In this document: positions 1-1,428 of the stretch, piece after piece
Layout: every line of letters begins with the position of its first letter
Position numbering within the stretch: the first letter of the stretch is position 1
From: a virus
Taxonomy: Duplodnaviria > Heunggongvirae > Uroviricota > Caudoviricetes
Strand: one strand, 5' to 3'
Length of the DNA stretch: 1,428 nucleotides
Virus record (IMG/VR): IMGVR_UViG_2585427757_000021
Notes under the pieces: generated by a model
Told to the model about the DNA's origin: nothing
What the model saw: the letters and a program-made list of their open reading frames with translations, nothing else
The model's database searches: none
Translations under genes and position numbers: made by a program

Positions 1-147
1 ATAACCTTCGCGGATATAGGTCACGCGAAAATCATCGACGGTTTTAATCGTTATCGTGCTGCCGTATTTATCCCGGAAAATATCGCCGGGGCGGATTTCA
101 GGCCGAGCGGGGCCGCTGGCAGTAAAGCCAGAATTTTTCTTTTTCAT
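1..147 (-). CDS. Small hypothetical protein, N-terminal 49 codons only (gene continues past window position 1): MKKKNSGFTASGPARPEIRPGDIFRDKYGSTITIKTVDDFRVTYIREGY...
   Basis: Hand translation of the reverse complement: ATG at 147-145 opens a frame that stays open to position 1. A GGAG sits 9 nt upstream of the ATG (complement of 157-160), inside the last codons of the upstream gene, which stops at 154-156. Not on the supplied ORF track, presumably because no stop lies in the window. The PGD-x-F/Y-RDKYG ... V-x-Y-x-R-E/D-GY pattern is reminiscent, from memory only, of small prophage proteins of the DUF4222 type; this is unverified. Confidence 0.5.
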   Translation of the reverse strand, partial: MKKKNSGFTASGPARPEIRPGDIFRDKYGSTITIKTVDDFRVTYIREGY

Positions 148-153
148 ATTTTT

Positions 154-372
154 TTACTCCAGAGGCAGCTTTTTAGCGGCGAGCTCAATATCAGATGTCA
201 GAGAAACCTGTGTATTTGCCAGGTCTAACAGCAAAGAAATAAGAATTTCTTCTCTGCTATCGGATTTATCGGTGCTAAGGCTGTTCATCCACATATTGAC
301 GACTTCCCTGATTTTTTTCGCAGAGTGCAGGGCTTCAAATGCCAGGTCTTCAATATCATGTTTATTTCGCAT
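154..372 (-). CDS. Small hypothetical protein, 72 aa from ATG at 372 (MRNKHDIEDLAFEALHSAKKIREVVNMWMNSLSTDKSDSREEILISLLLDLANTQVSLTSDIELAAKKLPLE); mildly acidic, predicted helical
   Basis: ORF track lists 154..402, but codon 402-400 is TTG, not ATG. In-frame ATGs lie at 387-385 and 372-370; the one at 372 is preceded by GGGGG plus 5 nt (complement of CCCCC at 378-382), the same architecture as the two upstream genes. Stop TAA at 156-154. Overlaps the upstream gene's stop (364-362) by 11 nt. About 13 acidic versus 9 basic residues. Confidence 0.6.
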   Translation of the reverse strand: MRNKHDIEDLAFEALHSAKKIREVVNMWMNSLSTDKSDSREEILISLLLDLANTQVSLTSDIELAAKKLPLE

Positions 373-607
373 AATCGCCCCCGCCATTTTCACAATCAGC
401 AATCAGGATGGCTTTTGCCTCATTCAGCGCCATATCAGCGGTAAGCTGTGCGTAAGCCAGCGAATGCGGGATTATCGCCCCTGTATATTCCGGCTCTCTG
501 GTAATGTGTTTTTCTGCGATTGCTACCGTGCATGAAATATCAATCAGCGCGTGCATCAGCGTTTTGATGGCTTCGGCGGCTGCGTCCGGACGGGTGTTAT
601 TGCACAT
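362..607 (-). CDS. Small hypothetical protein, 81 aa, Ala-rich and mildly acidic (MCNNTRPDAAAEAIKTLMHALIDISCTVAIAEKHITREPEYTGAIIPHSLAYAQLTADMALNEAKAILIADCENGGGDYAK)
   Basis: ATG at 607-605 preceded by AGGGGGTGAGAC (GGGGG plus 6 nt; complement of CCCCC at 614-618). Stop TAA at 364-362. The start overlaps the upstream gene's stop (599-597) by 11 nt. Same strand and phase logic as its neighbours. Confidence 0.65.
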   Translation of the reverse strand: MCNNTRPDAAAEAIKTLMHALIDISCTVAIAEKHITREPEYTGAIIPHSLAYAQLTADMALNEAKAILIADCENGGGDYAK

Positions 608-809
608 GTCTCACCCCCTGAATATTCGCGTTAATCATTCCGGCACGTTCTGCGAGTTCCTGTAATGATTCCCTTGTTGCGACAATGGCTTCATCTGGCA
701 GGTGGTAATTACACACCACGCGACCTTTATCCACATTGACCAGTAGCTGCCCGGTAAATTTCTCACGAAACTGAACGCGGTTAAGGTCGGTAAGTGACAG
801 GTTAATCAT
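597..809 (-). CDS. Small hypothetical protein, 70 aa (MINLSLTDLNRVQFREKFTGQLLVNVDKGRVVCNYHLPDEAIVATRESLQELAERAGMINANIQGVRHVQ)
   Basis: ATG at 809-807 preceded by AGGGGGAACACC (GGGGG plus 6 nt; complement of CCCCC at 816-820). The start overlaps the upstream gene's TAA (804-802) by 8 nt (minus strand reads CATGATTAA). Stop TAA at 599-597. Confidence 0.65.
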   Translation of the reverse strand: MINLSLTDLNRVQFREKFTGQLLVNVDKGRVVCNYHLPDEAIVATRESLQELAERAGMINANIQGVRHVQ

Positions 810-1005
810 GGTGTTCCCCCTGGCGAATACGGGCAGCGAATACCATCACGCAGCCATCAGGAGATTGCTGACGCGCTTCCTGTTCGCTGGTGGCCTCAAT
901 GGTAATCACGCGCGGTTGTGCCGTGCTCAGGGCGATAAAACGCCAGATGTATTTATTCAGGTTGTACGAGTCCCGCCCTTGCGGGTGTCTGGTATAATTT
1001 CTCAT
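802..1005 (-). CDS. Small hypothetical protein, 67 aa, first gene of the leftward operon (MRNYTRHPQGRDSYNLNKYIWRFIALSTAQPRVITIEATSEQEARQQSPDGCVMVFAARIRQGEHHD)
   Basis: ATG at 1005-1003 preceded by GAGG plus 5 nt (minus strand ...AGTATCGAGGCAGCT-ATG). Codon choice read by eye is enterobacterial-like (CTG, GCC, CGC, CAG, ACC). Lies about 100 nt downstream of the predicted leftward promoter. Stop TAA at 804-802. Confidence 0.65.
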   Translation of the reverse strand: MRNYTRHPQGRDSYNLNKYIWRFIALSTAQPRVITIEATSEQEARQQSPDGCVMVFAARIRQGEHHD

Positions 1006-1051
1006 AGCTGCCTCGATACTTCTGCTATCGTTGGTGGTTAGACGCCCTGCA

Positions 1052-1064
1052 TGTGTGCGAGCAC
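1052..1064. promoter_or_regulatory. Degenerate operator-like site TGTGTGCGAGCAC (GTGC-GA-GCAC, the core palindrome split by 2 bp)
   Basis: Fourth motif copy, in the ~100-nt leader of the leftward operon. Centre is about 48 bp from the 1102-1113 site, giving a roughly symmetric 48 / 23 / 47 bp spacing across the four sites. Confidence 0.3.
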
Positions 1065-1081
1065 TGCGGGGCGTTGCTTAA

Positions 1082-1101
1082 TTTGAGTGACAAAACTCAA
1101 A
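1082..1101. repeat. Inverted repeat TTTGAGT-GACAAA-ACTCAAA (7-bp arms, 6-nt loop)
   Basis: Perfect 7-bp inverted repeat directly abutting the 1102-1113 palindrome, inside the transcribed leader of the leftward operon. AT-rich and not followed by a U-tract on either strand. Confidence 0.4.
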
Positions 1102-1113
1102 CTGTGCGCACAG
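1102..1113. promoter_or_regulatory. Operator-like perfect 12-bp palindrome CTGTGCGCACAG
   Basis: Exact reverse-complement symmetry. Located immediately downstream of the leftward -10 box, at the predicted transcription start. Shares its TGTGCGCACA core with the site at 1126-1135. Confidence 0.55.
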
Positions 1114-1141
1114 ATTAAAATCATGTGTGCGCACATGTCAA
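1114..1141 (-). promoter_or_regulatory. Predicted sigma70 promoter for the leftward small-gene operon: -35 TTGACA (complement of 1136-1141), 16-bp spacer, -10 TTTAAT (complement of 1114-1119)
   Basis: Minus strand reads TTGACA-TGTGCGCACACATGAT-TTTAAT-CTGTGCGCACAG. The -35 is a perfect consensus and the -10 matches 5 of 6. One palindromic operator copy fills the spacer and a second starts immediately after the -10, over the expected transcription start. Confidence 0.55.
1126..1135. promoter_or_regulatory. Operator-like perfect 10-bp palindrome TGTGCGCACA
   Basis: Exact palindrome lying inside the 16-bp spacer of the leftward promoter. Its centre is 23 bp from the centre of the 1102-1113 palindrome, about two helical turns. 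Confidence 0.55.
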
Positions 1142-1209: not shown

Positions 1210-1428
1210 ATGTCTAGCGGTAACACAAACAACAAATCAGCAAAGAAAAATATTCGATTCCCACATGAGCTTATAGATGGGATTGATGCCAGCGTTGAAC
1301 AAGAAAAATTAACTAATCCTAGTGCTAATTTTTCCGCATGGGTCTTACTGCCGGTAAACGCAAATCAAAAGACGACAGCGCCGCAAGGCCAAAGAGCAGG
1401 AGTAACCACCACCAGCGCCGTGGTGTAA
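1210..1428 (+). CDS. Putative ribbon-helix-helix (Arc/MetJ/CopG-like) DNA-binding protein, 72 aa, with a low-complexity C-terminal tail (MSSGNTNNKSAKKNIRFPHELIDGIDASVEQEKLTNPSANFSAWVLLPVNANQKTTAPQGQRAGVTTTSAVV)
   Basis: ATG at 1210 preceded by GAGGTG (1199-1204) with a 5-nt spacer; stop TAA at 1426-1428. The segment KNIRFPHELIDGIDASVEQEKL-TNPSANFSAWV fits the RHH beta-strand / helix A / turn / helix B pattern (compare Arc FNLRWPREVLDLVRKVAEENGRSVNSEIYQRV, recalled from memory). The C-terminal ~25 residues are Thr/Ala/Gln/Gly-rich and probably disordered. Fold assignment is by pattern recognition only. Confidence 0.7.
   Translation: MSSGNTNNKSAKKNIRFPHELIDGIDASVEQEKLTNPSANFSAWVLLPVNANQKTTAPQGQRAGVTTTSAVV

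Follow-up and report, generated by a model that had tools for sequence, protein, structure and literature searches.

The stretch of viral DNA analysed here (1,428 nt, IMG/VR record IMGVR_UViG_2585427757_000021; hereafter the window) carries five small minus-strand genes, probably the promoter-proximal genes of an early operon, the one on the replication side, in an enterobacterial phage-inducible chromosomal island (PICI). This five-gene array, at positions 1–1005, is an ordinary early operon of a known element class, in which a new combination of known cassettes is joined by standard coupling junctions. At its entry lie a candidate antisense RNA of ~80 nt and a set of probable operators, through which such islands might be kept quiet.

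Read leftwards from the head of the operon, the open reading frames (ORFs) are ORF1 (802–1005; 67 amino acids), ORF2 (597–809; 70 amino acids), ORF3 (362–607; 81 amino acids), ORF4 (154–372; 72 amino acids) and ORF5 (1–147), of which the window edge leaves the first 49 codons; the first three pairs of neighbours overlap by 8, 11 and 11 nt, and the last pair is separated by 6 nt. The start of ORF4 was placed at the ATG at 372, which has the best Shine-Dalgarno (SD) sequence and is the RefSeq start, in preference to the TTG at 402 given by the automatic ORF list. Against homologues from seven other Escherichia coli islands, the pairwise ratio of non-synonymous to synonymous substitution rates (dN/dS) was mostly 0.1–0.6 across the five frames (ORF1, 0.1–0.6; ORF2, 0.07–0.31; ORF3, 0.3–0.8). 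Since these values lie below 1, the five frames are real protein-coding genes under purifying selection. Their products had been described from the sequence as mildly acidic or neutral, which is right for ORF2 (neutral) and for ORF3 and ORF4 (acidic) but wrong for ORF1 and ORF5, whose computed isoelectric points of 9.1 and 10.0 are basic. A plus-strand ORF at 56–535 (159 amino acids, GTG start) lies antisense to ORF3–ORF5; as its translation is of low complexity and it is the frames of the minus strand that are under selection, we regard it as a shadow ORF.

Profile and pairwise matches identify the first gene of the operon, ORF1, as encoding an Icd-like protein, a homologue of Icd of phage P1, which is annotated in the P1 record as a small protein that inhibits division and growth of the host cell. 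ORF1 scores 70.4 bits (E = 9.6e-20) against NCBIfam NF033153, for which the curated cut-off is 25, and P1 Icd scores 52.6 bits on the same model. BLASTP aligned the two proteins at 37% identity over 43 amino acids (E = 3e-7), and the residues that are invariant in an alignment of ORF1 with its relatives (WRF…EAR…P…F.AR) are also present in P1 Icd. At the other end of the array, the truncated ORF5 matches Pfam PF13973, DUF4222, at 44 bits (cut-off 27, E = 1.6e-11), and its full-length homologue in the closest genome, E. coli E700025, has 104 amino acids. DUF4222 was the sole Pfam family found among the window proteins, the remainder being sub-threshold noise. All five products match PHROG profiles (ORF1, phrog_6196, E = 6e-42; ORF2, phrog_340, E = 6e-23; ORF3, phrog_5146, E = 4e-26; ORF4, phrog_2196, E = 1.4e-4; ORF5, phrog_285), and with ORF1 and ORF5 in named families, the statement in the original prediction that it could place none of them in a known family no longer stands.

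The three genes between these two are less widely distributed. Relatives of ORF2 form 34 clusters in a search of 5.8 billion proteins, practically all of them from Escherichia, and those of ORF3, a predicted helical protein that also corresponds to the N-terminal half of phrog_2512, form 177 clusters, chiefly from E. coli with some from Citrobacter and Salmonella; neither family has a Pfam domain, and the members of both are annotated as hypothetical. ORF2 and ORF3 represent narrow families, essentially centred on Escherichia. An exhaustive phmmer search for ORF4 returned nine representative clusters only. Its BLASTP match to the syntenic protein of AST240 (E = 5e-7), which in turn matches phrog_2196 at E = 1.6e-22, identifies ORF4 as a divergent member of phrog_2196, the family that usually precedes DUF4222 in such islands. 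The ORF2 family also includes variants of 121 amino acids into which a Cys-rich segment is inserted (for example at loci L009, L012 and L036), and all ORF2-family variants terminate in IQG…. A paralogous family of 66–70 amino acids (MHNHEAH…DDFTGRVLVYLDKGKV…) is present as two or three paralogues in tandem in some arrays.

The assignment to a PICI comes from the genomes in which this DNA is found. Nine complete E. coli genomes match the window from end to end at 98.5–98.7% identity, the closest being E700025 (98.7% over the full window length), where the window is part of an island of ~14.4 kb that sits between the two halves of yifB. Read leftwards, this island consists of a tyrosine integrase, an AlpA-family regulator, a divergent YlcI/YnfO gene, the Icd-like gene, three hypothetical genes and DUF4222, followed by a 707-amino-acid DUF927 primase, a single-stranded DNA-binding protein (SSB), a ProQ/FinO protein, an HK97-type capsid protein, a protease, a portal, a connector, HNH, TerS and TerL. 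The AlpA-family protein, which like the integrase is encoded outside the window, has 62 amino acids and matches PF05930 (Phage_AlpA) at E = 2.7e-18. The E700025 island therefore combines an integrase and AlpA with its own primase, its own attachment site and a size within the ~10–15 kb range of PICIs, and it has no annotated tail or lysis genes. Its set of capsid, protease, portal, connector, HNH, TerS and TerL genes without tail genes corresponds to the layout published for capsid-forming PICIs of the EcCIEDL933 type (Alqurainy et al., 10.1101/2022.09.08.507074), and, judged from these nearest genomes, the best-matching island looks capsid-forming. These cassettes are found in classical PICIs too, alongside other modules, so that the window alone does not tell the type of PICI. 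The arrangement at the head of the operon is the same in an O157:H7 island and in EcCICFT073, the experimentally studied prototype of Gram-negative PICIs (PMC6092414); both EcCICFT073 and EcCIEDL933, two islands of this architecture, are known from experiments to be induced and transferred by a helper phage (PMC6092414; 10.1101/2022.09.08.507074). These neighbours bear out the mobile-element setting foreseen in the original prediction, here the early module of a phage satellite with integrase and AlpA in yifB. They also show that the operon is not confined to five genes, because the array runs on through an ATGA overlap into the DUF927 primase and then, on the same strand, into the SSB, ProQ/FinO and capsid genes.

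Within the window, the leftward, tightly packed layout, in which the C-terminal codons of a gene supply the SD sequence of the next, was found as proposed. The SD of ORF1, GAGG at 1011–1014, lies 5 nt before the ATG at 1005 (−5.9 kcal/mol) and is kept as TCGAGG in relatives. For ORF2, the SD is GGGGG (AGGGGGA) at 816–820 (−9.4 kcal/mol), within the final codons of ORF1 (…RIRQGEHHD), and the 8-nt overlap of the two genes reads ATGATTAA. The strongest SD of the window belongs to ORF3, GGGGG at 614–618 in AGGGGGUGA (−14.8 kcal/mol), with nine contiguous pairs to the anti-SD sequence, one of them G·U, and an 11-nt ORF2/ORF3 overlap, ATGTGCAATAA. ORF4 follows with GGGGG at 378–382 (−8.6 kcal/mol) and an 11-nt ORF3/ORF4 overlap, ATGCGAAATAA. 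All of these lie on the minus strand. The repetition of GGGGG-N5/6-ATG at three consecutive starts is far above expectation: two GGGGG-N6-ATG motifs were seen, at 807–820 and 605–618, against 0.03 expected, with two or more in 0 of 200 shuffles, and 0.02 were expected in window shuffles for the GGGGG-N5-ATG at 370–382. The three ATGs preceded by G-runs also form the top three anti-SD duplexes among the 29 ATGs of the minus strand, for which the background mean is −3.2 kcal/mol.

The same geometry, in which starts overlap or adjoin the upstream stop and the SD lies inside the upstream coding sequence, was found across the family of related loci, and the simplest reading is that ordinary termination–reinitiation coupling would operate across these junctions. 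In the mechanism that we propose, transcription would begin at a putative leftward promoter near 1107–1141, which is flanked by TGTGCGCACA palindromes and faces the divergent YlcI/YnfO-like gene, and ribosomes would load at the GAGG of the Icd-like gene. Each following gene starts 4–11 nt before, or a few nt after, the preceding stop, with its SD in the last codons of the preceding gene, so that a terminating ribosome would re-initiate on the next gene. The chain from Icd through ORF2, ORF3, ORF4 and DUF4222 to the primase would then form one coupled unit shielded from polarity.

The related loci differ greatly in the genes that they place in this chain. Small proteins were clustered by single linkage at 75% coverage (looser coverage joins all families through fused genes), and architectures were counted in 87 loci with at least three chained genes. 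These 87 loci contain 48 different collinear architectures, assembled from about a dozen families in constant relative order: Icd, (phrog_1478), (ORF2 type), ORF3 type, (121-amino-acid type), (phrog_24341), (ORF2 paralogue) and, at the end, phrog_2196 or the ORF4 type, DUF4222 and one of three replicase types. The number of genes between Icd and DUF4222 ranges from zero to five. In 58 of 85 related loci the slot ahead of DUF4222 is taken by phrog_2196 (46 loci) or the ORF4 type (12 loci); the replicase across 85 loci is a P4-type primase, RepA or DUF927, and its distance from DUF4222 is −4 (an ATGA overlap) in nearly all loci. The cassette combination of the window recurs in one other locus among the 87. 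Of the 5426 complete E. coli genomes, 10 contain 80% or more of the window and 1531 some part of it, and the five genes are therefore not a conserved unit. Because megablast homology to the window stops at 816 and 368/378, on the G-runs, and because unrelated genes have near-identical 3′ ends (…ATTCAGGGGGTGnnnCATG), the junctions also look like recombination seams of a cassette array. The genes between Icd and the phrog_2196/DUF4222/replicase block would then be exchangeable cassettes that recombine at near-identical junctions.

As a best estimate, the Icd-like protein would arrest host division or growth on induction of the island, and ORF2 and ORF3 would be fast-turnover accessory proteins directed against helper phages, competing phages or the host. 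Since phrog_2196, DUF4222 and the replicase are syntenically fixed, the first two are best understood as a pair that serves the third. Of these roles, only that of the Icd-like protein has indirect experimental backing. When the phage accessory protein orf24 is expressed, an Icd-like gene of ECOR61, together with five genes linked to it (one of them for a primase), brings about growth arrest, and the arrest needs the Icd-like gene, the likely effector (10.1101/2023.04.06.535777). An involvement in superinfection exclusion or host takeover, as the original prediction had suggested, fits this cluster. A reading of the operon as, above all, a module for phage-triggered abortive infection or superinfection exclusion is conceivable, if rather doubtful; in it, the Icd-like protein would be the growth-arrest effector, the small proteins and primase would sense or transmit a phage signal, and the small genes would be more than mere accessories to satellite replication. 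The ECOR61 trigger is indeed a phage accessory gene, whose effect is lost without the Icd-like gene (10.1101/2023.04.06.535777), and 48 architectures in 87 loci resemble the arms-race diversification of defence loci. None of the six proteins matched a PADLOC defence model at E ≤ 0.1, however, and the operon holds the element's own replicase, which the island life cycle requires (PMC6092414). Moreover, growth arrest could be a side effect of satellite induction, and the ECOR61 locus is likened to the window by gene content alone, not by cassette sequence.

We return to the early operon of a PICI and to how it might be controlled. In Gram-negative PICIs, AlpA induced by a helper phage switches on the island genes, and whether any global repressor is present was stated to be unclear (PMC6092414). 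At the head of the operon, an antisense RNA, so far undescribed, may cover the start codon of ORF1. An extended −10 element, TGgTATAAT, lies on the plus strand at 990–998, inside codons 3–5 of ORF1, and may act as its promoter; TGnTATRAT recurs in 86 of the 87 related loci, with no −35 element evident. Downstream of it, the candidate cis-antisense RNA of ~80 nt (1004–1085, plus strand) consists of hairpin 1 (1005–1040), hairpin 2 (1041–1075) and a T-rich tail. Hairpin 1 holds the complement of the ORF1 SD, and complementarity between the RNA and the ORF1 leader would be complete as far as the start codon. The conserved block linked to Icd reaches ~75 nt past the Icd start (matches end at 1047–1078). 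A perfectly conserved inverted repeat, CCCGCCCTTGCGGG, at 972–985 in Icd codons 8–12 (HPQGRD), just upstream of the antisense −10 element, may be part of the promoter, a structure or a coding constraint only.

The predicted fold is conserved and strand-specific. In the window, the minimum free energy (MFE) of the plus strand is −38.3 kcal/mol (z = −4.9) and that of the minus strand −23.2 kcal/mol (z = −2.6). In an alignment of 25 distinct variants, RNAalifold finds both hairpins with 98.2% of alignment cells paired (33–54% in slid controls) and eight covarying pairs, all in hairpin 2, including one allele with a wholly different stem; this covariation was equalled in 0 of 500 shuffles. A covariance model gave a single strong match at 90 of the 91 Icd-like loci, in every case antisense and ending at the Icd start codon, and no match in P1. 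A permissive Rfam scan of the whole window returned a chance match to mir-27 (19 bits, E = 0.29), with neither C4 nor any other family. Our literature search found no report describing small RNAs or antisense RNAs from E. coli PICIs, and searches of PMC6092414 and 10.1101/2022.09.08.507074 turned up no mention of the antisense element or of the operators.

These features could instead belong to the sense transcript: in the mRNA leader, the conserved hairpins would stabilise the 5′ end, serve as a processing site or bind a protein, such as the ProQ/FinO-family RNA-binding protein that the island encodes, with no antisense RNA at all. The minus-strand leader, too, folds better than its shuffles, as the z-score above indicates. 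We nevertheless consider this unlikely, since 81 G·U cells of the alignment become C·A mismatches on the operon strand, where pairing falls to 85.1%, and the mean MFE is −22.5 kcal/mol for the sense strand against −35.4 kcal/mol for the plus strand. The T-rich tail after hairpin 2 exists on the plus strand only, and TGnTATRAT stands at the right distance upstream on that strand.

An opposite-strand RNA would keep Icd untranslated in the quiescent island and, through coupling, silence the rest of the chain. It is thus a tentative proposal, which we put somewhat short of probable, that Gram-negative PICIs are kept silent by an antisense RNA of ~80 nt from a promoter in the first codons of Icd, so that one blocked ribosome-binding site silences the early operon, because the downstream genes are chained to it by coupling. 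If this is true, the variable loop of hairpin 1 and the alleles of hairpin 2 would be specificity groups, and the RNA would be part of the "missing repressor" of Gram-negative PICIs, alongside the YlcI-type protein and the palindromic operators.

The nature of the G-runs was assessed in 90 loci chained downstream of Icd, drawn from seven E. coli genomes, three species representatives, IMG/VR contigs and the window. Gene spacing in these loci is almost only −11, −8, −4, +1 and +5/+6, and the upstream stop mostly falls within codons 2–4 of the next gene (ATGnnnAATAA, ATGATTAA). Their 146 distinct junction contexts comprise 52 with GGGGG or longer, 22 with GGAGG, 26 with GGGG, 33 with a four-base SD and 13 with none, and have a median anti-SD energy of −8.75 kcal/mol. 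The junction is thus a module of ~25 nt made of SD, start and stop. At the 3′ end of ORF1 the related loci have CAGGGGG 77 times and CAGGAGG 11 times, giving an alternation of Q-G and Q-E in the Icd tail. Because GGGGG alternates with GGAGG at the same junctions, the simplest reading is that the G-runs are SD variants, AGGGGG being an allele of AGGAGG that would still pair with the anti-SD sequence through one G·U. The repeated motif itself is confirmed, but it is not a special signal.

That the G-runs are slippery tracts, serving as programmed frameshift sites or phase-variable switches that fuse and separate small genes, seems very unlikely. It would account for the junction after the ORF3-type gene in relatives, a run of G7–G10 in which G7+TT, G10+TT and G8+T give an in-frame fusion of ~154 amino acids (7 loci), the G8+TT and G9+TT forms give two genes (14 loci), and phrog_2512 has the fused length. 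Yet the runs of the window contain only five G, the third being interrupted (GGCGGGGGC); runs alternate with GGAGG, which is non-slippery and a better SD, and they keep a constant 5–7 nt from the ATG. Length differences among G7–G10 runs can also be assembly errors. This long junction, GAAAATG(7-10)TTATG, is seen at L003 11765–12229, L006 2837–3301 and L002 11552–11773, as slipped-strand variation or homopolymer assembly error.

Searches of deposited phages returned very little. Among 50,697 phage records, blastn gave a single 46-nt match, and tblastn led from ORF1 to one satellite-sized record and from ORF2 to none; the genes of the window are therefore not typical of deposited phage genomes. 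The sole record with an Icd-like match, LR881103.1 (Escherichia phage vB_KppS-Ant, 16,548 bp; match at 9397–9546), is satellite-sized and described as an "induced prophage", and is probably a packaged capsid-forming PICI rather than a phage. A profile scan of genome contigs with the Icd alignment, using narrow peptide patterns, found three loci only, in Escherichia ruysiae, E. albertii and Shigella. That the segment comes from a complete temperate prophage or a P4-type satellite and not from a PICI is most improbable: the PHROG matches of all five proteins, the 401 Icd-like relatives in IMG/VR "viral" contigs and a layout resembling the P4 left operon, with small genes ahead of the alpha primase, would agree with it, but the one matching phage record is itself of satellite size (16.5 kb), the IMG/VR contigs with an Icd-like gene are mostly 8–15 kb long, the E700025 island of ~14 kb has no annotated tail or lysis genes, and sid, psu and delta are not annotated in the islands examined (E700025, EcCICFT073 and O157:H7).

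At the entry of the PICI operon, the putative leftward promoter (1107–1141, minus strand) was read from the sequence as a −35 element TTGACA at 1136–1141, a 16-nt spacer and a −10 element TTTAAT at 1114–1119. Transcription would start near 1107, giving a leader of ~100 nt, and TTGAC- is found at the same place in relatives. A consensus promoter and terminator scan of the window did not call the leftward promoter, the antisense −10 element or hairpin 2, which were identified by manual reading and conservation; a simple terminator scan missed hairpin 2 and its tail because its loop is longer than 8 nt and the run of T is broken. The consensus scan did report a promoter-like site for the YlcI/YnfO gene on the plus strand at 1145–1173. 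Two perfect TGTGCGCACA palindromes (1103–1112 and 1126–1135) and one with a single mismatch (1173–1182) flank or overlap both divergent promoters and are probably operators. Islands with other YlcI alleles have different repeats in this position, such as two copies of GTGGGCCACACCT in CFT073 (L002 ~12290–12330), and these repeats look like operators of allele-specific repressors.

The divergent gene itself (1210–1428, plus strand) belongs to the YlcI/YnfO family (DUF3950; NF041551, E = 1.2e-10; phrog_949) and is a candidate repressor. Its C-terminus is apparently frameshifted, with single-base gaps relative to E700025 after 1347 and 1374; the conserved end (…QRRKAKEQE*) is out of frame, and the ORF reads on to 1428, encoding 72 amino acids instead of 65. 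Altogether, three one-base deletions relative to close relatives are seen (near 1056, 1347 and 1374), none of them in the five minus-strand ORFs, and these could be decay or sequencing errors; the one near 1056 falls in the loop of hairpin 2.

Some Icd-like proteins in RefSeq are annotated with 116–157 amino acids, their N-terminal extension being translated promoter and leader DNA (L001 20802–21152; L002 11990–12463; corresponding to 1006–1152 of the window). These long forms, from the Prokaryotic Genome Annotation Pipeline, were rejected: in the window the extension contains in-frame stops, a 1-nt indel is enough to open it, it is not conserved between islands, and it overlaps YlcI, the promoters and the operators. 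They are likely to be systematic mis-annotations, and the ECOR61 Icd-like protein, with its "long N-terminal extension", may be another such case.

Several points weigh against the account given here. The window spans 1.4 kb only, and the island type is taken from relatives that are 98.5–98.7% identical. Although the profile searches recommended in the original prediction gave family matches for all five proteins, and names for ORF1 and ORF5, the structural part was unusable: AlphaFold2 models from shallow alignments had low predicted local distance difference test scores (ORF2, 52.8; ORF1, 61.2), from which no fold was inferred; the best PDB match of the ORF1 model in Foldseek was no better than E = 0.38; and sequence searches of the PDB with all five proteins gave nothing at E ≤ 1. 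The roles given to ORF2–ORF4 are without support from any homology or usable structure model. Coupling, promoter activity and the antisense RNA are predictions from sequence. The leftward −10 element is imperfect, lacking the key A at position 2, and as the consensus scan also missed this promoter, the "strong" promoter that had been supposed to drive the array is not established. The tail after hairpin 2 is ~47% T and interrupted, a moderate intrinsic terminator at best. Finally, the related loci are close relatives of one another, and conservation of the antisense −10 element may partly reflect constraint on the N-terminal codons of Icd.

As satellites, PICIs are widespread, and virulence and defence genes move with them. 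The present analysis places the genes of the window in a PICI early operon, whose small head genes stay uncharacterised on published maps, and it presents the G-run junctions both as predicted coupling sites and as seams of a combinatorial cassette array. The conserved candidate antisense RNA and the operator set at the operon entry, which lie partly beyond 1–1005, offer a lead on how such islands may stay quiet.

Known systems resemble the window in different respects. The P22 immI region encodes a small antisense RNA, sar, from a promoter that faces Pant; sar is complementary to the ribosome-binding site of ant, the antirepressor gene. The window would share with it face-to-face promoters ~100 bp apart and a short antisense RNA over the SD and start of the first regulated gene; unlike in P22, where the target is an antirepressor, that gene is Icd-like, and there is no sequence relation. 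In P4, the left operon carries kil, eta, cII, epsilon and orf151 before the alpha primase, and immunity is RNA-based, with the CI RNA processed from the sense transcript. The likeness to the window is that of a satellite early operon with small genes ahead of a primase-helicase and control at the RNA level, which in the window is a prediction; the differences lie in the sense-strand origin of the P4 CI RNA and in sid, psu and delta, which the annotations of the islands examined lack. The authors of the PICI study noted that only AlpA, Pri-Rep and Int have distant homologues in P4 (PMC6092414).

The P1 immI region (c4 RNA, icd, ant1/ant2) is closer, since its first gene encodes the homologous small Icd protein, the 3′ end of icd carries a G-run SD (CAGGGGGG) with an ATGA overlap to the next gene (icd–ant1 junction, CAGGGGGGTTTATGA), and control is exerted by RNA pairing with the ribosome-binding region of icd; the curated P1 record describes icd as "apparently required for expression of ant". 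Unlike the window candidate, which would be cis-antisense with its own putative promoter, the gene for P1 C4 lies upstream on the same strand, and the C4 RNA acts at sites a2/b2; the downstream genes of the window are unrelated to ant, and the candidate RNA has no Rfam C4 match. The programmed-cell-death and superinfection-exclusion locus of the ECOR61 "prophage" (Silas et al., 10.1101/2023.04.06.535777) is alike in gene count and content, a comparison made by content alone. The closest likeness in layout is to PICIs of the EcCICFT073 and EcCIEDL933 types, which have int, alpA, a divergent YlcI/YnfO gene, an Icd-like gene, tiny genes, DUF4222, a replicase and SSB; the two papers on these islands (Fillol-Salom et al. 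2018, PMC6092414; Alqurainy et al., 10.1101/2022.09.08.507074) assign no function to the small genes, and the 2018 maps leave hypothetical genes white. The set found in the window (Icd, phrog_340, phrog_5146, ORF4 type, DUF4222 and DUF927 primase) is rare, whereas the block of Icd plus leader is 92–96% identical in many of these islands.

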